IMG/VR virus record: IMGVR_UViG_3300047160_036126
Span: 13,575-77,574 of that record
Reading direction: 5' to 3' (one strand)
Source: a virus
Taxonomy: Duplodnaviria; Caudoviricetes
DNA length: 64,000 nucleotides
Both the position numbers and the translations under genes were made by a program. Below the pieces are notes generated by a model that saw only the letters and a list, made by a program, of their open reading frames with translations, was not told the origin of the DNA and made no database searches. Positions 3,340 through 25,965 of this stretch are shown here, in pieces. Position 1 is the stretch's first letter; each line of letters opens with the position of its first letter.

Positions 3340-3900
3340 TCAAGAAGGCTGAAACTTTTCTATTTCGTTGCCCCATGTCGTCCAGCCCGGACGCGTGCAT
3401 CGTCCGAAAAGTTCACAGAAGGGCCCGTCCCATAATGCCTCGATATCCTCATACATTTGTTCTGGCTTGCGCGAGTGCTCCCGTACCGGCGCGACGATAA
3501 GATTGCGGACGTTGCGAACCCTCTGTTTCGGATGTCCGAGCGTGCCGAGCAACCAGAACTCTGCGGCGCTACGGTAGCAGTAGCCAGTTCCGAAAGCCCA
3601 TTTTTCTCCGGTGCTGGATTGCTTCGCCCATGCGCCGGCCGATTTGAAGGCGAACCCCCATGCCTTCATGGTATCGATCGCTTCGGGCAGGAGCGGAGAT
3701 GTCGCCCACATAATCAAAGCACAGTCCGGCCGCGCAAGCTGCGAAACCGGAAGGGCTTTGATCTCGGCAAGCGACATACATGTATAGTGCGAAACCGGAT
3801 TTTTCTTCTCGCCCTTCGCGCTGTAATTAGCGAAGCGCCACGGCGGATCGCAAAGGATGACGCCGTATCTTAGAGGAGTAAGGTTTTCAAACGGCCACAT
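3340..3900 (-). CDS. MT-A70 family N6-adenine methyltransferase (orphan)
   Basis: VILCDPPW catalytic motif, ALIMWAT, HSRKPE, ELFGR. Confidence 0.9.
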   Translation of the reverse strand: MWPFENLTPLRYGVILCDPPWRFANYSAKGEKKNPVSHYTCMSLAEIKALPVSQLARPDCALIMWATSPLLPEAIDTMKAWGFAFKSAGAWAKQSSTGEKWAFGTGYCYRSAAEFWLLGTLGHPKQRVRNVRNLIVAPVREHSRKPEQMYEDIEALWDGPFCELFGRCTRPGWTTWGNEIEKFQPS

Positions 3901-8789: not shown

Positions 8790-9026
8790 ATGCCCCGTGG
8801 CCTCAGCTATTCCGCTCGGCGCCGTCTGTACAAGGAACTATTCGCGCGCGACGGCAATCTGTGCTGGATCTGTGGTGAACCGATAAGCCGGAACAATCGA
8901 GGCAAAACCATGAGTCGCACTTTGGATCGCGTCATCCCCGGAAAACAGGGTGGAACCTATCGGCCGGACAATCTTCGACTCGCGCATAAGCTCTGCAATG
9001 AACTGCGGGGAGCATCGCCCGCATGA
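8790..9026 (+). CDS. Small HNH endonuclease-like protein
   Basis: CWICGE...TLDRVIP..QGG...DNLRLAHKLCN; catalytic DH appears as DR. Confidence 0.8.
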   Translation: MPRGLSYSARRRLYKELFARDGNLCWICGEPISRNNRGKTMSRTLDRVIPGKQGGTYRPDNLRLAHKLCNELRGASPA

Positions 9027-9232
9027 CACAGGACGGATTTCTCAAATCTCTCAGCGATAACAAGACCGCCGTAACCATTTATATTGTCAACGGTGTCAAA
9101 TTGATGGGCGTGATCGCGTGGCACGATCAATACACGATCGGCCTCTGCCGCGACGGCCGCACGCAGATGGTCTATAAACATGCAATCGCAACCGTGATGC
9201 CGAATGAACCGCCGCAAGTATCAGGACGCTGA
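9023..9232 (+). CDS. hfq: Hfq-like RNA chaperone (phage-encoded)
   Basis: QDGFL..., Sm1 VTIYIVNGVKLMGVI..HDQY, Sm2 QMVYKHAIATVMP. Confidence 0.92.
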   Translation: MTQDGFLKSLSDNKTAVTIYIVNGVKLMGVIAWHDQYTIGLCRDGRTQMVYKHAIATVMPNEPPQVSGR

Positions 9233-9333
9233 AGCCGATTTGCTTCTTTGGCGCATGCTTGGCTGTAATCTCCATGGCGAGCTGATAGAATGTTATGCTA
9301 GTATTACGGGATGGGATAACTCGGTAGCGACCA

Positions 9334-9846
9334 ATGCTGCTCACCGATCTGCTTTTGCTTCTTGCGATATTCATGGCAATTCGAGCGTGCCCGAAGAAAG
9401 GCCCCAAGCCGAAGAAAGAACGCCGCTGGCTTCGACGCAATAAGGCGCCACGCAAACGCGGTAGGTTTCACGCAGGACGCCCATCGCGATTTCCTCCCGA
9501 TTGGGCTTGGGCGCGCCAGCAGCAATATAATCGGATCATGCAAACTACCTCGGCGGAAGCCGCTGTATGCGCCGTCCTTCGGAATCTTGGCATACAATAC
9601 GAACGGGAACATATCGTAATGCGCCCAAATGGGCGGCCACTTTTTGTAGATGTGTGGGTGCCGTCGCTTCGGATTGGTATGGAACTGGACGGCTCTCACC
9701 ATCGAGACTGTCTAGACGTATATGATATTCCGCGTGATCAATGGATAGAAAAAGAAACAGGATTTAAAATTCTGCGCCAATGGAATAAATGGGCTACCGA
9801 TCCAGGATTGGAATATAGATTGAAATCCGTACTTAAATTGCTATAA
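9334..9846 (+). CDS. DUF559/Vsr-like PD-(D/E)xK endonuclease
   Basis: EAAVCAVL...YERE...FVDVWVPSLRIGMELDGSHH; start uncertain. Confidence 0.75.
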   Translation: MLLTDLLLLLAIFMAIRACPKKGPKPKKERRWLRRNKAPRKRGRFHAGRPSRFPPDWAWARQQQYNRIMQTTSAEAAVCAVLRNLGIQYEREHIVMRPNGRPLFVDVWVPSLRIGMELDGSHHRDCLDVYDIPRDQWIEKETGFKILRQWNKWATDPGLEYRLKSVLKLL

Positions 9847-9860
9847 ATGCGAAACGCCGG

Positions 9861-10556
9861 ATGCTTGAACATCGCGGCGTTTCTAAACCAATAACAGGGA
9901 TGGCTGCCATGGTTTCGTGCAGTGTAATATCACTACCAGATAATTTACAAAATAAGATTATGCCAGAACCAACGTCGGGTTGCTGGTTATGGATCGGGGC
10001 TAGAGATCCGAGAGGGTATGGCCGCAGGACGGCGCAGGATCATGGTGAGAGATTAGCACATAGAGCGGTGTACAAAATACTACGAGGGCCAATACCGCGC
10101 GGTCTATTTTTATGTCATACGTGTGACAATCCTCCTTGTGTAAATCCTTCGCATATGTTTGTCGGAACACAACTCGACAATATGAGGGACTGCTTTTCGA
10201 AAGGCCGAGGACAAGACTTGCGCGGAGAAGAAAAGTATTGTGCGGTGTTAACAGAGAAAGATGTGATTGAGATCCGCCTTTCTAAGGAAATAACTCGTGA
10301 TCTGGCAAAAAGGTATGGGGTAAATAAAGCGTCGATCACAAGTTGTCGGCTCGGAAATACATGGAAGCATCTTAACGAAAAGTATCCACCATTAAAATTT
10401 TTTGATATTCTGACGAATGAACAGAGATTTACGGCCTTTCACGATAAACGTCCTATTATGGAAATTGCGCGCGACTATGGAGTAGCCTACCAGAGTATTT
10501 GGCAGCTTAAGCGCAGGGGGCTTAAGCCTCGTGGTCGCCCGCCTAAACATCGATAG
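9861..10556 (+). CDS. HNH homing endonuclease (HNH_3) with C-terminal HTH repeats
   Basis: PEPTSGCWLWIGA, LCHTCDNPPCVNPSHMFVGTQLDN; start uncertain. Confidence 0.88.
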   Translation: MLEHRGVSKPITGMAAMVSCSVISLPDNLQNKIMPEPTSGCWLWIGARDPRGYGRRTAQDHGERLAHRAVYKILRGPIPRGLFLCHTCDNPPCVNPSHMFVGTQLDNMRDCFSKGRGQDLRGEEKYCAVLTEKDVIEIRLSKEITRDLAKRYGVNKASITSCRLGNTWKHLNEKYPPLKFFDILTNEQRFTAFHDKRPIMEIARDYGVAYQSIWQLKRRGLKPRGRPPKHR

Positions 10557-10669
10557 AGAACATCAGTAATGCTGAACCGCCTGTCGCCGCACCGGAAAGC
10601 CCCGACGTTCCCTTCGCCCAATCCTGAGCCTTCCTTGCGCCGCGCACAGGGGCTATAGGATGCGTCCTT

Positions 10670-13357: not shown

Positions 13358-13579
13358 TTATTCTGCAAATTCCAAACAGTCGTAATGAAGCCGATCGTCC
13401 TGCTTCCTTCCAGGCCAGCGGACACGCACTATCTCGGATTTGCTCTGCGGTTGTCGATTGACTACTCCTATTTCCTCGCCCCAGAGCGATAACAATGGTC
13501 GTTGTTTGCGTCCTTGTGGCGACAGCCGAACCTTATCTCTGATCCTGAACGGGTTTTCGGTTTCTTGTTTGTCGGTCAC
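13358..13579 (-). CDS. Small hypothetical protein (SH3/KOW-like)
   Basis: GTG 13579 overlaps the upstream stop; FRIRDKVRL...GVV...VRVRW. Confidence 0.55.
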   Translation of the reverse strand: MTDKQETENPFRIRDKVRLSPQGRKQRPLLSLWGEEIGVVNRQPQSKSEIVRVRWPGRKQDDRLHYDCLEFAE

Positions 13580-13950
13580 GCCGCCTCCATCAATTCGCGC
13601 GCGCGGACTTTGCTCGACTCCGGCATCTCCCAGCATTCGCCCCAATGGGTTTTGATCTCGATGCCGAACGGCTTGAGTTTTTTGCGCATCTTGCAAATCC
13701 ATACGTCGAGGATCTTCTCACCCGGCGGCTCGTCGGCCTCGGTGCTGTACATTGCCGCAATGAAGGCTTCGACTCTTGGCGCCCGATTGTTAAGCAAAAC
13801 GTTGAACATTTCTGCTTCGCTGCGAGTGAGGTTGAAATAGGGCGGCGGCATATCCGCTCCCTTAAGAGCCTTCTTAAGCAGGCGGATCTCTTCACGCAGC
13901 GTCTCGTTCTCGACGTCAAGAACTTCTGCCCTCGCCTTCCAGTCGATCAT
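13576..13950 (-). CDS. Receiver-less CtrA-like OmpR winged-helix protein with an N-terminal coiled coil
   Basis: DEPPGEKILDVWICKMRKKL...IKTHWG closely matches CtrA DEPELKIIDVFICKLRKKL...IETVWG; no receiver domain. Confidence 0.82.
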   Translation of the reverse strand: MIDWKARAEVLDVENETLREEIRLLKKALKGADMPPPYFNLTRSEAEMFNVLLNNRAPRVEAFIAAMYSTEADEPPGEKILDVWICKMRKKLKPFGIEIKTHWGECWEMPESSKVRARELMEAA

Positions 13951-14774
13951 GCGGCCATCCTGTTACCGGCACGGACCCAGCCTTGGGCGACGGCTTTCCA
14001 CAATTGCATGCGGTGATCGACATCGGAATGGGCGGCGACTTGACGCCGCCATTGGTCGATCGATTTGCTGCGCACGACCGTGACGAGATCGGCGGCGGAA
14101 TGCGCCCAGCCGAATTTGGCGTCGAACAAGACGGCCGCACTGGCAAGGATTTCATGCACGACGACCGGCGCCCGCTTGGCAGATACCAGCACCTTTAAGG
14201 CCTTGGTCGCCTTTTCCTCACCCAGGCGCCCAACCAGGCGCACGATAGCGCCGGCGGCCATGGTATCTCCAACTTCCCATTCTGGCGCCTGAACCTTCGC
14301 AATGGTTACGCCGGCCGCCTGGGCAACCTTCCGGGTGAGAAGGGCCGCCTCATCGCCGGCGACGATTTTGGCATGGAAGATTTGAAGGGCGTTCATCGTG
14401 AGACGGTGGGTATTCTGCTCGATGAAGGCCCGCGCGCGCTGCTTCAATTCGGCAGCTTTCACCACCATCACCGGGATTTTGTCGATGTCGCCGCGGCTCG
14501 CGGCTGCAATAGCGGTGTGCTGTCCGTCTATCACGCATAGCTTGCCATCCGTACCCTCTGCACAGATCGGCGGCTTGATATGTAGCCAGTCAAAATTTTT
14601 GGCAATCTCGCGAATAAGCTTGATCGATCGCTTCGTGAGATCCCGCTGATATTCGCCTTCGATGAAAAGCTCTTTTGGGTCGATCCATTTGAAGGAAGGC
14701 TGTTCGGGGGAGACTGTTTCGAGCTTCAGGCTGGGAAGGGGGATCGGCTTAACGAGACGAAGCTTTGCTGACAT
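13947..14774 (-). CDS. ParB-like N-terminal domain protein (DUF6551-like)
   Basis: EYQRDL, CVIDGQHT. Confidence 0.7.
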   Translation of the reverse strand: MSAKLRLVKPIPLPSLKLETVSPEQPSFKWIDPKELFIEGEYQRDLTKRSIKLIREIAKNFDWLHIKPPICAEGTDGKLCVIDGQHTAIAAASRGDIDKIPVMVVKAAELKQRARAFIEQNTHRLTMNALQIFHAKIVAGDEAALLTRKVAQAAGVTIAKVQAPEWEVGDTMAAGAIVRLVGRLGEEKATKALKVLVSAKRAPVVVHEILASAAVLFDAKFGWAHSAADLVTVVRSKSIDQWRRQVAAHSDVDHRMQLWKAVAQGWVRAGNRMAA

Positions 14775-14794
14775 GCGCCCTCCCGGTTGTTGAT

Positions 14795-15016
14795 TTAGAG
14801 GGCTGTTCGGTCATGCCTGCACCGTTTGGGTTGTTTGTCGTCGGGTTGGAAAATCAACACGGAACCGTCAGACCGTTCCAGTCTAGCCTCCACGATAAGG
14901 CGGCCCGCCTGCTCGACGCAGGCATCGCAAATATAACAGGACGGTCCGGCGATAAAAAGAAACCGCTCGCTGGCGTAGGCGCCGCAGAATGAACAACTGA
15001 GATTCTTGTTGCTCAT
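14795..15016 (-). CDS. Stand-alone ClpX C4-type zinc-binding domain
   Basis: LSCSFCG...FIAGPSCYICDACVE versus ClpX LYCSFCG...LIAGP.V.IC.ECVE; no ATPase domain. Confidence 0.85.
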   Translation of the reverse strand: MSNKNLSCSFCGAYASERFLFIAGPSCYICDACVEQAGRLIVEARLERSDGSVLIFQPDDKQPKRCRHDRTAL

Positions 15017-15471
15017 GCTGCCGGCCTCTGGTCAGAAAGTTGCGGGAGCATCTTAGAATTTATAGCGCGGTCGAGGACAGTCTCGCCGGTTGGCAAAAGC
15101 ATTTGACCAAGGAACGCGCCCTCGAAACTTAGGATGCCACTCTCGATTGCCATCACCTGGCCCTTGATCCAATCGCGCAGGATCGAGTAAACGGCCTTTC
15201 CGCCAATGTCCAAGGCACGCTGCTCCCATTCGGCGCGGGAAGCGCGACGGCGATGACTATAAGGATTTTCTTTCAACCAAGCGGCTGCGTAACCCTTTGC
15301 AGAAGCGCGGACGCAGATCGGAATATTGCGGAAGGTGAATTGGACGATAAGTTCGCCCTTCTCGAAATCCTGCATATGACCAAAATTCTGGACGCCAAAG
15401 CGCTGCAAAATCCTTTGCACCTCGTCCATTGCTTTCGCGCCGGTAGTGGCATCCTGATACGGCAGGCTCAT
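15013..15471 (-). CDS. Conserved hypothetical phage protein
   Basis: ILRDWIKGQVMAIESGILSFEGAFL; coupled ORF. Confidence 0.65.
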   Translation of the reverse strand: MSLPYQDATTGAKAMDEVQRILQRFGVQNFGHMQDFEKGELIVQFTFRNIPICVRASAKGYAAAWLKENPYSHRRRASRAEWEQRALDIGGKAVYSILRDWIKGQVMAIESGILSFEGAFLGQMLLPTGETVLDRAINSKMLPQLSDQRPAA

Positions 15472-15641
15472 GCGCGCCTCTCTGCTGTGCGCTGTGGCTT
15501 GGTTCGCGAATTGTATGAGATCGGAAGATCAAGAATCTTTCGCTCTACAATCACGGACATGCTTAAGCCTGTCTCCTTGCGGATATGCTTAAGCCTAGGC
15601 AGAACTTTCTCTGATAAAAAGAATGTGTGATTTTTCTTCAT
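15468..15641 (-). CDS. Ribbon-helix-helix (CopG/Arc-like) regulator, not in the ORF track
   Basis: Manual translation MKKNHTFFLSEKVLPRLKHIRKETGLSMSVIVERKIL... (57 aa); strand-helix-G-helix pattern; ATGA-coupled to the next gene. Confidence 0.65.
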   Translation of the reverse strand: MKKNHTFFLSEKVLPRLKHIRKETGLSMSVIVERKILDLPISYNSRTKPQRTAERRA

Positions 15642-15654
15642 TGAGAGATTGTAT

Positions 15655-15678
15655 GAATAATAATTATTCAGTTGTCAA
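15655..15678 (-). promoter_or_regulatory. Leftward promoter 2 with a palindromic operator
   Basis: Palindrome GAATAAT-A-ATTATTC (15655-15669) beside minus-strand TTGACA (15678-15673). Confidence 0.45.
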
Positions 15679-16114
15679 TAAGCGGGTTCCTTGTTTGACG
15701 CGCCGCAGGCAAGTCAATAAAGGAGACGTTCCTCGTCTCGACGAGATTACGTGACCACGCAAAGCGGCGTGGTCAAACCCTGCAACCGCGGAGCGGCGCG
15801 CAGCCATGGGCGAGCGGGGTTGACCGCAATAGCCGTGCCGCGTGGTATTGAGCAATAATGTTTCGTTCCGTTGCCGATATAAATAAGCGATTATTATTTA
15901 AGCGTTGGACATGCTATATTTGGTCGCAGACAGGGCCGATTCTCGGTTTTGTCTATTCACCGCAAGGTGGGCGGGTTTGGGTGTTGCAACGCCTCGATCC
16001 TGCTCCTCGAAAGGGGATCGGCCCGCTACCTTCGCATCTTTCGAGGTCTCTCCTTTGGCTTTGTATTCAAAACGATTGCAAAAAAAATGGCCCCATTTGA
16101 GGTTCTGGGAAGAG

Positions 16115-16474
16115 ATGTACGCGCTTGGGTGGCGAACGGAAGTTGGTTATGGACCAGCTATATATCAAGAGGACATACCGTCGGCCGCGGGGGTTTATCT
16201 TTTTGGATTAATCGACATATCTTTCGGTAAACGGCTTAAGCCGGTTCGGGTGGCATACGTAGGAAAGTCGCGTAACTTGGCGCGCCGCCATATTGACCAT
16301 CCAATGCTCAGGTTTATTAGGCGAGATGTCGGCCTGTGGTGGTCCATAGACCTGTGGTTTAAGAGACTGGATGAGGGAGAAATTACTTCGGAAGAGATTC
16401 GGCTGATCCAGGCATTCAATCCGCCTTATAACATACAACACAGACTGCGCGGATTTCATGGACAGGCTATTTAG
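16115..16474 (+). CDS. GIY-YIG endonuclease
   Basis: GVYLF...AYVGKSRNLARR...E..LI..FNPPYN; start uncertain (ORF open from 15905). Confidence 0.8.
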   Translation: MYALGWRTEVGYGPAIYQEDIPSAAGVYLFGLIDISFGKRLKPVRVAYVGKSRNLARRHIDHPMLRFIRRDVGLWWSIDLWFKRLDEGEITSEEIRLIQAFNPPYNIQHRLRGFHGQAI

Positions 16475-17126
16475 GATTGATTTCTATCCGCAGGATTGGC
16501 TCGTCAAAACTGGGGGTCTCACGCCCGAACAGTGTGGTGTTTACATTCAGGTCGTTTCGCTGATTTATGCTTCGCGTGGTCCTGTTGAATTTGATCCCGC
16601 TCGTATATCGAGACTCGTCCAGGGCTGTACGGTGCGAAGGGCAAAACGAGTGTTAGATGAGTTAATTGCTTTAAAAAAGTTACATGTGTTTGAGGGATTT
16701 TTGAGCAATAATCGGTGCGAAATTGAGTTGAAAGTAAAGAAAAACCAATTGGAATCTAACCGAAAAGGTGGGGAAAATTCGGCAAAAAAGAGGTGGGGTG
16801 CTAATGAAAACAGAGGCATAGTTGTAAGTCACTTAGAAAGTGACTTAATAACCCCGTCCCCGTCCCCGTCCCCGTCCCCGTCCCCGAAAGAATACTTCTT
16901 TGAAGGTAAAATAATAAAGTTGACGGAAAAGGATTTTAATCAATGGCGATCGTCTTACCCGAACATTCGAGATTTGCGGGCTACGCTGCAGCGGCTTGAC
17001 GATGGTGCCGCGCGGAAATGGGGAAAGGGTTGGTGGCATCCGTGTTCTTCGACTTTGGCCAAAATTAACGCGGAAGAGAAAACAACAGCACGGGCGCCGC
17101 TGCACCCAGGGGCGATTACGATATGA
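16458..17126 (+). CDS. DUF1376/YdaU-family phage replication initiator
   Basis: FYPQDWL...LTPEQCGVY..., LSNNRCE; PSPSPSP linker; directly upstream of the helicase. Confidence 0.82.
   Translation: MDRLFRIDFYPQDWLVKTGGLTPEQCGVYIQVVSLIYASRGPVEFDPARISRLVQGCTVRRAKRVLDELIALKKLHVFEGFLSNNRCEIELKVKKNQLESNRKGGENSAKKRWGANENRGIVVSHLESDLITPSPSPSPSPSPKEYFFEGKIIKLTEKDFNQWRSSYPNIRDLRATLQRLDDGAARKWGKGWWHPCSSTLAKINAEEKTTARAPLHPGAITI
16825..16886. repeat. Inverted repeat plus (CCCCGT)5 tract inside the initiator gene; candidate lytic origin
   Basis: TAAGTCACTT-AGA-AAGTGACTTA (16825-16847); CCCCGT x5 (16852-16881). Confidence 0.5.
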
Positions 17127-18421
17127 AGGAAACGGATTCTTTGCCGGTTAATCACGATGTAGAGGTCGGCCTAATAGCCTGCGCAATGCTGGGGCCGAAG
17201 CTTTGGCACGAAATGGCATTCGTGGCACCAGATGATTTCGTCGATCCGTTCAATGGAAAACTTTGGGCGTTGATACGGGCGGCATATGAGCGGGGGGAAA
17301 GCCCCCAGGTGCAGGCGATAGGGGATGCGGCCGGCGGCACGACGGATGAACGTAAGCAGATTACGGATTGGCTTGTGAGTTGGATGTCTAGGACGATCAC
17401 GGTTTTGTCGGGTGTCGATTATGCGAAGATGGTTCATGATTATGCGGAGCGCCGAAAAATTATCGACTTGGCGAACAGGATTCAATTTGAGGCGGCCGAT
17501 GTGTCGGGCGCGCGGATTGCGGCGGATATCGCCGCCAAGGCCGTCAGCGAATTGACGAACATCGTTTGCCGTAAGCGCGAGACGTTGAGTGCATTTGAGG
17601 TGGGTATGCAGGTGGTAAATAATCTCGCAAAACCGATGGACTTTTGTTCTACGAAATTCCCGCGGCTTGACGGTGCGCTTGGCGGCGGATTATTTCAAAA
17701 CAAATTTTACGGCATCGGCGCCCGGATGAAATCCGGCAAAAGTCTCCTCATGTCGACGCTTGCTTACAACATGACGGTTATGGGGACCAGCCGGGTTTTA
17801 TATCTGTGCCTGGAAATGGGATATGAGGAAACGTTTCAGCGCCTTCTGGCGCGAAAGATGGGTTTTAATGCATCGGAATTTCTCGATCCGATTAAGCGGC
17901 TCGACAAGGGGTTCCGAGAGAACGCTCGCACAGCGGCCGCGACATTCAAGGATTGCGGGTTATTTTTCAAAGCGAGGCCACGGATCGATATTGACGATTT
18001 GAAATCGATCATCGCGCAGGAAGGTCTGCGGGGTCATGTGGACGGGATAATCATCGATTATTTGCAACTCGTTACTGGAAAAACAAAGTCGCAAACACTG
18101 GCTGACCATTACGATCATGTGGCGCAGACAATGGCCGAAGCCGTGAAGCGGTATCCGATTTGGATTCTGACTGCGGCGCAGCTTAATCAAGAGGGCAATA
18201 TCCGCGGTGGTGAAGGCTTATTGAACGCGTGCGATATGACTTTCGCCCTGCACAAAAAGGAATTTGCACCGGATTGGCAGGGGACGAGGGTTTGTGATGA
18301 AGCGTGGCTCGAAATGATGGCGAGCCGGTACACACAATACCGAAATATCGGTTCCGAGCAAAGTGCCGGTTACAGGATTGAAACACAGATTGGGCCGATG
18401 TTCTGCGAGCAACAGCTATGA
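17123..18421 (+). CDS. dnaB: DnaB-like replicative helicase
   Basis: Walker A GARMKSGKS, CLEMG, IIDYLQLV, AQLN. Confidence 0.88.
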   Translation: MKETDSLPVNHDVEVGLIACAMLGPKLWHEMAFVAPDDFVDPFNGKLWALIRAAYERGESPQVQAIGDAAGGTTDERKQITDWLVSWMSRTITVLSGVDYAKMVHDYAERRKIIDLANRIQFEAADVSGARIAADIAAKAVSELTNIVCRKRETLSAFEVGMQVVNNLAKPMDFCSTKFPRLDGALGGGLFQNKFYGIGARMKSGKSLLMSTLAYNMTVMGTSRVLYLCLEMGYEETFQRLLARKMGFNASEFLDPIKRLDKGFRENARTAAATFKDCGLFFKARPRIDIDDLKSIIAQEGLRGHVDGIIIDYLQLVTGKTKSQTLADHYDHVAQTMAEAVKRYPIWILTAAQLNQEGNIRGGEGLLNACDMTFALHKKEFAPDWQGTRVCDEAWLEMMASRYTQYRNIGSEQSAGYRIETQIGPMFCEQQL

Positions 18422-18553
18422 AAATCCCGATCCGTGGGTGGCGGCGGAAGCGCGGGACAGGTTCGAGATGTTGCTGGTGGTCTGAGGGAATTTCGGTTGA
18501 ATATGCGTGATCGGTTCGCATGCGGAACGATTGGAGATCACCCTATAAAGCCT

Positions 18554-18582
18554 TTGACATTAAAGATTTTTCGACTTAATCA
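18554..18582 (+). promoter_or_regulatory. Sigma70-like promoter for the operon containing sciP and gcrA
   Basis: TTGACA-N17-TAATCA; followed by a 9-bp GC hairpin at 18609-18639. Confidence 0.5.
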
Positions 18583-18644
18583 ATAATTGTTCGAGTCGCA
18601 TTGAACAGCGGCCCGGTTCGCGATAGCAGCCGGGCCGCATTCCA

Positions 18645-19088
18645 TTGAGGCCGCTCGTGCCGAAAAAGAAAAAACCTCAGCCGCAAAAATCAGAAACGGG
18701 ATTGGAAGTCAGCATTTGCTTGGCACTGGCGGTAATTTTTATTGCCGCGTTGCTTGTGCGGGGATGGATGGAAATCAACACGGTTGCTCAGCTTCGCGAT
18801 GACAACAAGGTTCTGACCGCTGCGAACCATCAATTGTGGGACGAAGTGGATAAGCTGAAAGCGGAGAAGGTTGAAACGTTGCCGGCCGCGGGTCCACAGC
18901 ATATTTTTCTGCATGATGACCCGCCGAAAGAGCGTTCGGCTGATAGCCTAAATCTGGCTGAAGCCGTGCGCCACGGCGACCACAGGCGCGACAACATCGA
19001 AACGGATAAAGCCGCGGTTCACGCGGAGGAGGCACGCACGCCGGACGACGCCGGAGAGGAAGGCCAATGCCCGGTGTGCTCGAAATAA
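18645..19088 (+). CDS. Membrane-anchored coiled-coil hypothetical protein
   Basis: Single transmembrane segment then coiled coil; start uncertain. Confidence 0.5.
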   Translation: MRPLVPKKKKPQPQKSETGLEVSICLALAVIFIAALLVRGWMEINTVAQLRDDNKVLTAANHQLWDEVDKLKAEKVETLPAAGPQHIFLHDDPPKERSADSLNLAEAVRHGDHRRDNIETDKAAVHAEEARTPDDAGEEGQCPVCSK

Positions 19089-19267
19089 CCCGTTTCACTC
19101 CGCGCCGGAAGGCCGAGCTGGTTCATGCAATCGCGACCGGCGCGGTTAGCGATTACGAGGTGATGCAGCGGTATTCGATGTCTCCGCAGGAACTGCTCGA
19201 TCTCAAGCGTCTCGCACCGCAAGGGCGAAAGGCGCTGCGCGTGACGAAGCGAACGGTTTCCGCATGA
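19067..19267 (+). CDS. sciP: SciP-like (DUF1153) CtrA-inhibitor homolog
   Basis: RFTPRRKAELVHAIATGAVS..EV.QRYSMSPQEL...G..ALRVT matches the SciP pattern RW..RRKA.VV.AV..G..S..EA..RY.LS.EE....G..GLR.T. Confidence 0.8.
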   Translation: MPGVLEITRFTPRRKAELVHAIATGAVSDYEVMQRYSMSPQELLDLKRLAPQGRKALRVTKRTVSA

Positions 19268-19713
19268 TGAATTTAACCCCAGAGCAACTGCAAGAAATGT
19301 ACGTCGGCCAAAACAAGTCGATGAACGAGATCGCGCGGATAAGCGGCATGCCCAAGGGCACAATCGTGAGTCGGTTGCGCAGGTTGCGGCTGAGGGGGTT
19401 GATCGGGTTCAAAGCTCGCGGGCCGGCGAAAGTATTACACAGGCCGCGAAAACCTGTTGCCGATAAGCCGAAACCAGTGCCCGTAGTGGTACAGCCCAAA
19501 ATTGAGATGCCCATTCCAGTGGCGCCGGTGAGCCTCCTGAAGGTCAACGACAGGCTTTGCCGGTATCCGCTGGATTATAAGATCGACGGGTTTTCGGCAT
19601 GCTGTGGCGGGGAGGTGGTGGCGGGGACGCCCTATTGCGCGGATCATGCTGGTATTTGCTTTATTGTGAAGCCGCGGGTGCCGCCGCGAGGTCATCGGGC
19701 GATCGGGGAGTGA
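19264..19713 (+). CDS. gcrA: GcrA-like cell-cycle regulator
   Basis: N-terminal HTH (SMNEIAR...TIVSRLRRL); C-terminal SLL..NDRLCRYP...CG...GTPYCADH. Confidence 0.85.
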   Translation: MMNLTPEQLQEMYVGQNKSMNEIARISGMPKGTIVSRLRRLRLRGLIGFKARGPAKVLHRPRKPVADKPKPVPVVVQPKIEMPIPVAPVSLLKVNDRLCRYPLDYKIDGFSACCGGEVVAGTPYCADHAGICFIVKPRVPPRGHRAIGE

Positions 19714-19940: not shown

Positions 19941-20585
19941 ATGCGCGCGGCTACACCTTTGGTAAAACAAACGGAATTACCGGCTTTTCTGGTCGAGCGG
20001 CGTGCGGTCGCGCGCAAAAAGGAGCGCAAGATTTCGGCGCCGCGTCCTATCGGCGACGTCGGCACCGCGGAAATGAAACGACAGCAAAAGGTGACGCTGG
20101 AAGTGCGTGAACGGTCATCGACCGGGCATGCGACGATGATGGGCGCGCGTGTGGAATCGCAGTTTCCGATTGATCGGTATAAGGCGCGCAAAGAGCTCGA
20201 TCCGGCGAATGCCTGGAGGAATTTGATGCTGTGGCAGGCGGCTGAGCGGCTGCGCGAGGATTTCCAGGCTTCAGGCCTAGCGCCGAAATTGTGCGGAAGT
20301 TTCGAGCCGCGGGTGACGGGCGGACGTCAGACGTTCGAGGCGGATCATCAGGTCGACGCTCTCAGGCGCTACAAGAAAGCGATGGATGCTGTGGCGGTGA
20401 CGCTGCGGTCTGTGGTGTTCTATGTGTGCATCGCTGGTGAGGCTGCGAACGAGTGGGCGCGGCGGAACGGAGAAATACCGCAAGCGGGCCTGCCGATATT
20501 GCGCTTGGGCCTCGCGGAGCTTGCGCACCACTACGGTTATGCGAAAATTCCAGTGACAGACAAGACGTCGCTCGCTGGAGAATAA
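19941..20585 (+). CDS. Putative late-gene regulator (DUF6456-like, Q-position gene)
   Basis: QAAERLREDF..., VVFYVCI.G..., LRLGLAELAHHYG; last early gene before the packaging genes. Confidence 0.55.
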   Translation: MRAATPLVKQTELPAFLVERRAVARKKERKISAPRPIGDVGTAEMKRQQKVTLEVRERSSTGHATMMGARVESQFPIDRYKARKELDPANAWRNLMLWQAAERLREDFQASGLAPKLCGSFEPRVTGGRQTFEADHQVDALRRYKKAMDAVAVTLRSVVFYVCIAGEAANEWARRNGEIPQAGLPILRLGLAELAHHYGYAKIPVTDKTSLAGE

Positions 20586-21616: not shown

Positions 21617-21922
21617 ATGCCATTTGAAAAAGGAAAATCAGGTAATCCGGGTGGCCGCAATAAGGAACATGAGCGGCTGAAAAAGCTCGCGCTGAGCTAT
21701 TGTCCGGCTGCGATCAAGAGATTGGGCGAGTTGATCGCATCGAAGGATGCGCGCACAGCCGTTGCAGCGTCGAGCGCGATTTTGGATCGCGGTCTTGGCA
21801 AACCAGCGCAGGCGTTGGAGCACAGCGGTATGATCGCGACGACGCACGAAGAATATTTAAAACAGCTTGATGCAGGGAATGACGCCGACGGAGAAGGAGA
21901 TCCGGCTTCGGTTGCGGGATGA
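21617..21922 (+). CDS. terS: Terminase small subunit
   Basis: MPFEKGKSGNPGGR; AASSAILDRGLGKP. Confidence 0.8.
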   Translation: MPFEKGKSGNPGGRNKEHERLKKLALSYCPAAIKRLGELIASKDARTAVAASSAILDRGLGKPAQALEHSGMIATTHEEYLKQLDAGNDADGEGDPASVAG

Positions 21923-23309
21923 TTTCGAATATTACGCCCCGAGATGCCTGAAAATACGGACGAAGAGCGGTGCAATCGAACCGCTTAGGTTAAACGGCGC
22001 CCAGAATTTCTTTCACGATAAACTTGAAGACCAGAAGCACCGGACCGGGAAGGTTCGCGCCCTGGCGCTGAAAGGGCGACAACAGGGCGTATCGACTTAC
22101 ACCGAAGGGCGGTTTTTCCATCGGGTTACAAACCGGCGGGGGACACGGGCATTCATCCTCACGCACATGGATGACGCCACCAATAACATCTTCGGGATGG
22201 CGAAGCGGTTTTACGACTATTGCCCGGCGGTAGTAAGGCCGATGCTGGCGGCTTCAAACGCCAAGGAGCTGGTCTTTAATCGCCTGGACAGCGGCTACAA
22301 GGTCGGGACTGCGGGCAGCAAGGGAACAGGCCGCGGCGAGACGCTGCAACTGTTCCACGGGTCTGAGGTGGCCTACTGGCCCAATGCTGATACGCATGTC
22401 GCCGGTGCGCTGCAGGCGGTACCGGACGAGCCCGGCACTGAGATCATATTAGAAAGCACGTCGGCGGGGCGCCAAGGCCTGTTTTACGAGATGTGCGTGG
22501 CCGCAATGCGGGGAGAGGGTGAGTACATCCTCGTCTTCATGCCGTGGTTCTGGCAGCGAGAATATCGGAAACCGGTCGGAGTGAATTTCGAGCTCACGCG
22601 TGACGAAGCGGCGTATCAAGAGGCTTACAAGCTCGATCTCGATCAAATCGCCTGGCGCAGGGCGAAGATCACGGAATTGAATGGCGTCCACAATTTCAGG
22701 CGGGAATATCCCGCGACGCCGGAAGAGGCCTTTGAGGCGGAAGTGCCGGGGGCGCTGTGGAAACGGGAGCAAATCGACAAGTTGCGGGTAGCGAAAGCGC
22801 CCGACCTTAAGCGTGTCGTCGTAGCGCTGGATCCTTCAGGGGGGGATAAATCGCGCAATGATGAAGTGGGGTTGGTCGGCGCCGGAGCTGATGGACAGAA
22901 GCACGGGTATGTGCTGGCCGATGAATCAGGCCGCTACAGCCCGGATGCATGGGGCCGAAAGGCGGTTGCGCTTTATCACCTGCTGAAGGCCGATCGGATC
23001 GTCGCCGAAGCGAATTTCGGCGGCCAGATGGTCGAGCACGTCATTCGTACGATCGACCCGAACGTTCCGGTGAAGCTGGTGCACGCCTCGCGCGGCAAGC
23101 AGGCGCGCGCGGAGCCGGTAGCTGCGCTTTACGAGCAGGACCGCATGCACCATGCGGGCATGTTCATCGGGCTCGAAGACGAAATGGTCACCTGGGTCCC
23201 CCTGACGTCGACAGACAGTCCGAACCGGGTCGATGCGCTAGTCTGGGCTGCAACGGAGCTTTTAATAGACGGGCCGGGCACTGCGAACGTGGCGCCGCTG
23301 AGGCTGTAA
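21879..23309 (+). CDS. terL: Terminase large subunit
   Basis: LKGRQQGVST Walker A, FHGSE, ILEST, VALDPSG nuclease motif, NRVDALVW. Confidence 0.95.
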   Translation: MTPTEKEIRLRLRDDFEYYAPRCLKIRTKSGAIEPLRLNGAQNFFHDKLEDQKHRTGKVRALALKGRQQGVSTYTEGRFFHRVTNRRGTRAFILTHMDDATNNIFGMAKRFYDYCPAVVRPMLAASNAKELVFNRLDSGYKVGTAGSKGTGRGETLQLFHGSEVAYWPNADTHVAGALQAVPDEPGTEIILESTSAGRQGLFYEMCVAAMRGEGEYILVFMPWFWQREYRKPVGVNFELTRDEAAYQEAYKLDLDQIAWRRAKITELNGVHNFRREYPATPEEAFEAEVPGALWKREQIDKLRVAKAPDLKRVVVALDPSGGDKSRNDEVGLVGAGADGQKHGYVLADESGRYSPDAWGRKAVALYHLLKADRIVAEANFGGQMVEHVIRTIDPNVPVKLVHASRGKQARAEPVAALYEQDRMHHAGMFIGLEDEMVTWVPLTSTDSPNRVDALVWAATELLIDGPGTANVAPLRL

Positions 23310-25365: not shown

Positions 25366-25965
25366 ATGGCTGTTTTATTCAAATCATGTATTGTGGCTGA
25401 TTGCAATGGTAACGCTCATCCGGAAGCGAGAGGAACGCGCGGGTGGTGCAGGAAGCATTACACACGTTGGCAAAAGTTTGGGTCAACCGATTTGCCGGCG
25501 AATGCAAATGGTAAGTGTCAGAAATGGCTTTTAGAACACGCTGGATACGATAAAGCTGAGTGCTTGATTTGGCCATTTGCTCGCGGGCCCGAAGGATACG
25601 GCAGGGTTCAATTTCGCAAGAAAATAACAGCGGCGCATCGAGCTATCTGTATTTTGGCTCATGGAGAGCCTAGCTTGAGGTCGTTGCATGCAGCGCATTC
25701 ATGTGGAAATGGATATGACGGATGCGTTAATCCGTCCCATTTGCGGTGGGCAAGTAAAAAGGAAAATGAAGCCGATAAGCTTATTCACAATAAGCATAAT
25801 CGGGGACAGCGTCATGGGGCGGCTAAGCTAACTGAGAAGGATGTGAGGGAAATAAGGGCGTTACGTGGTGTCCTGACTCAGATAGAAATTGCGCATATTT
25901 ATGGGATTAGCCCTGCATATGTTTGCGGCTTGCAAGCATTTCGTACGTGGGCGTGGGTAAAATAG
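25366..25965 (+). CDS. HNH homing endonuclease
   Basis: CLIWPF, HSCGNG..GCVNPSHLRWAS..EN; preceded by a GAAGCC...GGCTTC hairpin. Confidence 0.88.
   Translation: MAVLFKSCIVADCNGNAHPEARGTRGWCRKHYTRWQKFGSTDLPANANGKCQKWLLEHAGYDKAECLIWPFARGPEGYGRVQFRKKITAAHRAICILAHGEPSLRSLHAAHSCGNGYDGCVNPSHLRWASKKENEADKLIHNKHNRGQRHGAAKLTEKDVREIRALRGVLTQIEIAHIYGISPAYVCGLQAFRTWAWVK

Follow-up and report, generated by a model that had tools for sequence, protein, structure and literature searches.

Relatives of CtrA, ClpX, SciP and GcrA in the early region of a temperate provirus are probably separate acquisitions

The 64,000-nucleotide stretch of DNA analysed here, called the window throughout, corresponds to bases 13575-77574 of the 77.6 kb IMG/VR provirus record IMGVR_UViG_3300047160_036126, for which CheckV completeness was 100. 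Four small genes in its early region encode proteins resembling parts of CtrA, ClpX, SciP and GcrA, and the first-pass annotation had read them as one system, recognisable by the co-occurrence of its four nodes. The window is probably a complete provirus of a temperate myovirus-type phage of an alphaproteobacterium, in which the four genes were acquired and kept independently and do not form a co-inherited circuit. Judged from sequence comparison, each of the four appears either to preserve one domain of a host regulator or to be its distant paralogue. The four genes are as follows.

13576..13950, minus strand: receiver-less CtrA-type DNA-binding protein ('zipper-CtrA'), 124 aa, with a helix at residues 4-30 followed by an OmpR/PhoB winged helix
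14795..15016, minus strand: ClpX zinc-ribbon-only protein, 73 aa, without the AAA+ module
19067..19267, plus strand: SciP-like DUF1153 helix-turn-helix protein, 66 aa, without the N-terminal ~28 residues of SciP, overlapping the GcrA-like gene by 4 nt
19264..19713, plus strand: GcrA-like protein, 149 aa, with an N-terminal helix-turn-helix and the GcrA C-terminal region

Co-occurrence of the four genes in related phages

Related loci were fetched with A1, the 41-member alignment and profile of the zipper-CtrA family; 25 loci came from named genomes, mostly of Hyphomicrobiales, and 80 from IMG/VR. Whole-record Pfam searches were performed on 50 IMG/VR records carrying zipper-CtrA, and the neighbour counts in all these relatives rest on tblastn and HMM matches and not on gene calls. 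Among the 50 records, zf-C4_ClpX was found in one, GcrA in 10 (eight over the cut-off) and DUF1153 in none. The four genes are therefore not a conserved unit, and the claim that they can be recognised as one system by co-occurrence did not hold. GapR-like (DUF2312-type) genes were found in 11 of the 50 records, the window's own record having none, and GcrA and GapR-like genes overlapped in 2 records against 2.2 expected if they were independent. Within 10 kb of 80 ClpX ribbons from IMG/VR, home-made HMMs detected GcrA-like genes at six, a CtrA-like gene at one and a SciP-like gene at none.

The closest relatives point the same way. The loci L027 and L028, whose terminases are 78-79% identical to that of the window and whose CtrA-like proteins are 73% and 64% identical, have ParB-like, CtrA-like and DUF6456 genes (L028 also has DUF1376), and the ClpX ribbon, GcrA and DUF1153 are all absent from both. 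Since related phages carry the four genes singly and without a fixed combination, these are best regarded as separately acquired accessory genes. The cassette formed by the ParB-like and zipper-CtrA genes runs in the same direction as the terminase gene in L027 and L028 and is inverted in the window, indicating modular shuffling.

An alternative is that the four genes act jointly on the host CtrA/SciP/GcrA/ClpXP oscillator, fixing the host in a cell-cycle state or tying lysis and lysogeny to it, which we regard as unlikely. In its favour, all four domains are real, phage precedents exist in the form of GcrA homologues, CcrM analogues and CtrA sites (PMC9437464, PMC3556154), and three of the four genes are again neighbours in provirus L087 (below). 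It is contradicted by the lack of conserved co-occurrence and by the closest relatives, which lack three of the four genes. Further points on both sides are given below with the proteins concerned.

Several observations weigh against strictly independent acquisition. In L087 (the same record as L170; GC 69%), positions 9203-10558 hold on one strand a ribbon gene, an unknown ORF of 155 aa, a gene for a 64-aa GcrA N-domain-only protein and one for a 227-aa CtrA-type protein, so that three of the four families are again neighbours, as one same-strand block; this four-gene run is followed by a C5 (cytosine) methyltransferase. In two further phages a ClpX ribbon lies within ~1.5 kb of a GcrA-like gene, in one of them with a DnaA-domain-IV-only gene between. 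ClpX-ribbon-only and SciP-like genes are so rare that strict independence would hardly be expected to bring all four genes together in a single phage. The ribbon and SciP-like surveys used exact peptide patterns and will have missed divergent copies, and the co-occurrence baseline is crude, being drawn from carriers of zipper-CtrA or of the ribbon. There may be a weak statistical association among the four genes.

In L148 (9956-13458), genes for a ClpX-ribbon-only protein, a DnaA-domain-IV-only protein (Bac_DnaA_C, 76 bits), a GcrA-like protein and a helicase follow in this order, and in L161 a replicative AAA protein is directly preceded by two GcrA-like genes and a ribbon gene. The DnaA gene of L148 is a further case of a host replication regulator copied as a single domain. 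Since early regions of these phages often collect domain-only versions of host regulators in varying combinations, a mix-and-match toolkit fits better than a fixed circuit.

The CtrA-like protein

Zipper-CtrA is a receiver-less CtrA-derived DNA-binding protein and is probably constitutively dimeric. Its family comprised 48 protein matches, mostly of ~120-140 aa and many of them named CtrA by the JGI pipeline, and members were found mainly in Hyphomicrobiales genomes. No CtrA receiver domain with the phospho-acceptor Asp was found in the 124-aa protein. The AlphaFold model (pLDDT 82.8) shows one long helix at residues 4-30 ahead of the winged helix, and its best Foldseek matches were OmpR/PhoB DNA-binding domains with an rmsd of ~2 A. 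The A1 profile matched the same class of domains in the PDB with E ~1e-6.

To the CtrA equivalog model NF045991 the protein scored 25.6 bits against a cut-off of 350, matching only profile positions 150-217. In five host genomes, where true CtrA was set independently by NF045991 (>420 bits), a search with A1 returned CtrA as the top match after prophage copies in all five, at 55-58 bits, and every other OmpR-family regulator (~30-50 candidates per genome) scored 37 bits or less. Because host CtrA ranked first in five of five genomes, the profile evidence indicates that the likeness is specific to CtrA and not generic to the OmpR family. The first-pass call of a CtrA-like DNA-binding domain at 13576 is borne out by these two profile searches, though a single-sequence Trans_reg_C search gave 21.7 bits, below the cut-off of 26.2.

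These results also bear on the possibility that the phage genes merely share folds with host regulators, being ordinary phage regulators with a winged helix, a helix-turn-helix or a zinc ribbon and with no functional tie to them. The sub-cut-off Trans_reg_C score and the very low scores of the four proteins on the host equivalog models would agree with it. Fold-sharing is nevertheless very unlikely, as A1 separates CtrA from the other OmpR-family candidates by ~20 bits in all five genomes, the C-terminal Cys/Pro motif of GcrA is kept and the ClpX ribbon is well above its cut-off.

The identity between zipper-CtrA and CtrA was ~28% across the aligned domain, and in the recognition-helix stretch 11 of 14 residues were identical to CtrA, as counted by eye in an alignment with five CtrA sequences. 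This near-complete retention of the recognition helix would suit an action on the host oscillator. Against such an action, T168/T170 were not retained in the alignment of the family with the five CtrAs, where the Thr-x-Thr is replaced by a shorter stretch of Ala-Pro-Arg type; T168/T170 are a determinant of CtrA promoter choice (PMC6847485).

CtrA boxes were considered as sites of zipper-CtrA in the window phage and rejected, as no TTAA-N7-TTAA box was found in the window (0.38 expected). In 1.8 Mb of related loci there were 6 against 3.2 expected, which is no clear excess, and none adjoined the ParB/zipper-CtrA cassette. These counts cover phage DNA and say nothing on host targets. Given that the boxes are absent or not in excess, the targets of zipper-CtrA may be half-sites, altered sites or host promoters.

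A C-terminal Ala-Ala was present in 11 of the 41 A1 proteins, including that of the window, and in one of the five extracted host CtrAs, which may be chance. Such an end looks like the ClpXP degron at the C-terminus of Caulobacter CtrA.

The ParB-fold partner

The ParB-fold gene is the only conserved partner of zipper-CtrA. A DUF6551 ParB-fold gene directly preceded it on the same strand in 19 of the 25 genome loci and in 48 of the 80 viral ones, and in the window the start of zipper-CtrA overlaps the stop of this gene by 4 nt.

13947..14774, minus strand: ParB-fold DUF6551 protein, 275 aa (Pfam DUF6551 41.9 bits; phrog_1033, ParB-like)

Phage DUF6551 fusions have been reported to bind CTP or ATP (2025 preprint, 10.1101/2025.10.10.680097). 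The conserved ParB-fold/zipper-CtrA pair is the part of this early region most likely to be worth studying.

In other prophages the neighbours of the cassette included GemA and DUF3164 (Mu-like), GapR-like, NusG-like and CI-type genes. In L007 a GapR-like gene is directly upstream of the ParB-like gene. At 4 of the 25 genome loci and 13 of the 80 viral ones, L005, L007, L017, L018, L030, L035 and L036 among them, the cassette is followed at a distance of 0.7-2.5 kb by an MT-A70 methyltransferase gene; the MT-A70 gene of the window is 10 kb from the cassette, in a separate operon.

The ClpX zinc-ribbon-only protein

The ClpX zinc-binding domain announced at 14795 is present, with 45.4 bits to zf-C4_ClpX against a cut-off of 27 and all four Cys kept. 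To the ClpX equivalog NF003745 the protein scored 30.4 bits against a cut-off of 359, matching only positions 3-48, and no AAA+ ATPase body was found in the 73-aa ORF. The closest relative found was the copy in provirus L087, with 46% identity and a short tail common to both. Searching INPHARED gave only three unannotated fragments. Used as single queries, the ribbon, the GcrA-like protein (IMG/VR) and the DnaB of the window turned up nothing closely related among genome or viral contigs, and word-indexed protein searches with the ribbon and for DUF1153 each returned only the query itself.

Of 140 loci that a ribbon scan of IMG/VR returned, 80 were retained. Together with L082 and L087 these 82 loci held 86 ribbon-bearing frames, 45 of them of 150 aa or less, on contigs with a GC of 33-69%. 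This range indicates that stand-alone ClpX ribbons are a general phage device and not an alphaproteobacterial cell-cycle one, and the use of ribbon-only proteins by phages of many taxa counts against a joint action on the oscillator. In 25 host genomes, the zf-C4_ClpX matches were ClpX itself and one extra stand-alone copy. In L180 (9959-10556), two ClpX-ribbon genes in tandem are flanked by a 544-aa gene on one side and a portal gene of Mu type on the other.

On its own, the ClpX N-domain is the place where adaptors (SspB in E. coli, CpdR in Caulobacter) and certain substrates (lambda O, MuA) dock. Since this domain is a docking site, a free ribbon is expected to compete for adaptors and substrates, and the wide taxonomic spread of the ribbon favours a general role, such as protection of phage proteins, over a CtrA-specific one.

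The SciP-like and GcrA-like pair

This pair lies downstream of the DnaB gene and ahead of the DUF6456 gene. The SciP-like protein reached 39.8 bits to DUF1153 against a cut-off of 23.5, in agreement with the SciP/DUF1153 homolog proposed at 19067. Its best NCBIfam match was the CtrA inhibitor SciP (NF051866), with 38.2 bits against a cut-off of 100, and the alignment covered SciP profile positions 30-85 of 90, short of the full length. In the five host genomes DUF1153 occurred exactly once each, as SciP, which favours a tie to the oscillator. Relatives of the SciP-like protein at E<=1e-3 numbered 16 among 1.84 billion representatives. A pattern scan of IMG/VR with a narrow alignment (A5) gave six loci, and in none of the six was the SciP-like gene coupled to a GcrA-like gene, the nearest being 9 kb away. 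We know of no solved SciP-CtrA complex.

The GcrA homolog called at 19264 was likewise recovered, with 33.3 bits to Pfam GcrA (PF07750) against a cut-off of 26.9. On the GcrA equivalog NF050816 it scored 20.5 bits against a cut-off of 280. Its C-terminal part aligned to residues 6-69 of the solved GcrA chain 5yix_B, which we take to be the sigma-70-interacting domain of GcrA, with E 0.008, and the Cys-x-x-Pro and Pro-Tyr-Cys-x-x-His positions are kept in this alignment. The five host genomes had 1-4 GcrA-family genes each. A tblastn search of INPHARED with the GcrA-like protein gave no match.

The great distance of both proteins from the host ones (38 against 100 bits and 20.5 against 280 bits) is a further argument against their joint action with the other two on the oscillator. 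As all four proteins lie far below the NCBIfam equivalog cut-offs, the ClpX-, SciP-, GcrA- and CtrA-like proteins are cut-down or distant relatives of the host proteins and not orthologues.

Methyltransferase and GANTC sites

The first-pass annotation had also named an orphan adenine methyltransferase at 3340, away from the four genes. An adenine methyltransferase is present there, and it is not of the CcrM type.

3340..3900, minus strand: MT-A70 adenine methyltransferase (Pfam 96.5 bits; phrog_359)

A CcrM-like role was ruled out for this gene because the protein belongs to the MT-A70 family and not to the beta-class N6_N4_Mtase; this also speaks against the oscillator explanation. GANTC, the CcrM site, occurs 100 times in the window against ~279 expected, a 2.8-fold depletion, and is twofold enriched in intergenic DNA (15 of 100 sites in 7.6% of the window). 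Among the intergenic sites, 18593 precedes the SciP-like/GcrA-like operon, whereas 21205 and 21603 precede the late genes. Genomes of hosts with CcrM commonly show such a depletion of GANTC, and it is no demonstration that the GcrA-like protein uses these sites.

The GafA-type gene and late-gene control

Ahead of the late genes, the following two features were found.

19941..20585, plus strand: DUF6456 (GafA-type) protein, candidate late-gene activator, upstream of the late genes (Pfam 56.8 bits)
21867..23309, plus strand: large terminase, start of the late region (phrog_979, phrog_38)

In Rhodobacter, GafA directly activates the gene transfer agent (RcGTA), and its homologues are annotated as DUF6456 (PMC9638019). 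In RcGTA, gafA transcription needs unphosphorylated CtrA, and CtrA is degraded by ClpXP (PMC9638019). On this basis the phage could be thought to run a private cascade that switches on its late genes through a CtrA-type factor independent of phosphorylation, a GcrA-type sigma-70 cofactor and a GafA-type activator, all of them its own, with their turnover tuned by the ClpX ribbon. We give such a cascade only a small chance; it would be the phage equivalent of the route from CtrA through GafA to the structural genes known from RcGTA.

The private cascade would be consistent with the DUF6456 gene standing just upstream of the terminase in the window, L027 and L028, with the RcGTA precedent and with the Ala-Ala ending described above. 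The ParB/zipper-CtrA cassette also follows gemA in Mu-like relatives, a position which we take to be the place of Mu's middle-operon activator. Against it, DUF6456 was over the cut-off in just 2 of the 50 zipper-CtrA records and accompanied the CtrA-like gene only in the closest kin, and a general cascade from CtrA-like to GafA-like proteins across the zipper-CtrA family was rejected on this count. The CtrA-box counts also oppose it, with none in the window or beside the cassette and no clear excess in the related loci, and the cassette of the window is transcribed away from the late genes.

Genome layout and other features

The window has a GC of ~55%. Its genes for a large terminase, a portal, a major head protein, a tail sheath and a tape measure indicate a temperate myovirus-type phage. 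No near DNA match to the window was found in INPHARED, cultured phages including no close relative of it, and no tRNA gene was found within it. A scan for consensus promoters and terminators performed no better than on shuffled sequence.

As the first-pass annotation had stated, the two gene pairs belong to two oppositely oriented operons, and they flank the intergenic region 15642-15904, as read from gene orientation. Three 4-nt overlaps were observed, between the gene of unknown function and the ClpX ribbon, between the ParB-like and CtrA-like genes, and between the SciP-like and GcrA-like genes, which suggests translational coupling within the operons. The Hfq gene reported at 9023 was confirmed. 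The remaining features are listed below.

15013..15471, minus strand: early protein of unknown function, 152 aa (phrog_17260), whose stop overlaps the ClpX-ribbon start by 4 nt
15468..15641, minus strand: first gene of the leftward operon, 57 aa, with a weak ribbon-helix-helix/Arc-like match (RHH_1 16.5 bits, below the cut-off; phrog_3180, Arc-like repressor, E 2e-4)
15642..15904, no strand: intergenic region between the divergent early operons, with promoters presumed from gene orientation
16458..17126, plus strand: DUF1376 primosomal-type replication protein (Pfam 31.1 bits; phrog_9327, E 4.5e-22)
17123..18421, plus strand: DnaB-type replicative helicase (DnaB_C 67.6 bits; phrog_19, E 3e-47)
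9023..9232, plus strand: phage-encoded Hfq, 69 aa (Pfam Hfq 85.5 bits)
8790-9026, plus strand: HNH-like ORF, seen by eye only, abutting the Hfq gene
9334-9846, plus strand: DUF559 gene
9861-10556 and 25366-25965, plus strand: two confirmed HNH-type endonuclease genes, dispersed with the DUF559 gene over the early and head regions

Proposed mode of action

Under the preferred explanation of separate acquisition, zipper-CtrA would be a phage transcription factor that dimerises via its coiled coil and reads CtrA-type sites without phosphorylation through CckA-ChpT, and it would act with its translationally coupled, nucleotide-binding ParB-fold partner. The ClpX-ribbon protein would compete for adaptors or substrates docking on the ClpX N-domain, a trick of phages of many bacterial groups, and could shield phage replication or regulatory proteins as readily as stabilise CtrA. 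The GcrA-like protein may serve as a sigma-70 cofactor at middle or late promoters of the phage, between the replication genes and the GafA-type activator, and the SciP-like protein, whose gene is apparently coupled in translation to that of the GcrA-like protein, may be a small regulator of helix-turn-helix type. If the host cell cycle is affected at all, this would then reflect separate actions added together and not the output of one system.

A bolder reading, which we think improbable, is that alphaproteobacterial phages draw on a changing set of tools, each a domain-only derivative of a host master regulator, and that the window phage uses the four proteins and the GafA-type activator jointly to decouple from, or to lock, the CtrA/ClpXP cycle, as an ancestor-like version of the gene-transfer-agent control circuit. 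Such a toolkit might consist of GapR, the SciP-like helix-turn-helix, the ClpX ribbon, DnaA domain IV, the DNA-binding domain of CtrA and either domain (N or C) of GcrA, among others; the examples come mostly from Hyphomicrobiales-type proviruses.

Taken individually the genes are real and unusual, and the window phage is an uncommon collector of them. The family assignments of the first-pass annotation stand, the likeness to CtrA being specific, and the conserved integrated set does not, the co-occurrence survey being against it. With all four gathered in one phage, the provirus is a convenient single test bed, and each gene is short enough to be expressed alone or combined in model alphaproteobacteria. 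Because they do not form a unit, a "shadow cell-cycle circuit" could be claimed only on the strength of genetics and not of gene lists, and the significance would be high only if genetics showed the genes acting together.

Comparison with known systems

Phage GcrA homologues, which the first-pass annotation already gave as known, have been published for phiCbK-like phages and Sinorhizobium prophages, and so have analogues of CcrM in Sinorhizobium phages and sites for host CtrA on phage genomes (PMC3556154, PMC12429752, PMC9437464). In the literature outside subscription journals, nothing was found on SciP-like genes of phages, nor on a CtrA without receiver or a lone ClpX ribbon in them.

Compared with CtrA (NF045991), zipper-CtrA shares the OmpR/PhoB winged helix and most of the recognition helix (11 of 14 residues), and CtrA is the best host match to its family profile; it differs by the predicted N-terminal coiled-coil helix in the place of the receiver, by the loss of T168/T170 and by its coupling to a ParB-fold gene. 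The likeness to the N-terminal zinc-binding domain of ClpX (PF06689) consists in the C4 zinc ribbon with its four cysteines, whereas the phage protein is a stand-alone 73-aa form without the AAA+ unfoldase, and host ClpX ribbons score 75.9 bits. With SciP (NF051866; DUF1153) the helix-turn-helix core is shared, while the N-terminal ~28 residues are missing and host SciP reaches 137-142 bits on the Pfam model. Relative to GcrA and the GcrA homologues of phiCbK-like phages (PF07750; PDB 5yix; PMC3556154), the protein of the window passes the Pfam cut-off and aligns over the C-terminal motif, but is very divergent from the NCBIfam equivalog.

A known parallel for the combination is the RcGTA circuit of CtrA, GafA and ClpXP (PMC9638019), since the phage likewise has a CtrA-type factor, a DUF6456/GafA-type gene ahead of the late genes and a ClpX-derived protein. 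It differs in that all components in the window phage are phage-encoded and cut down, and their combination is not kept among relatives.

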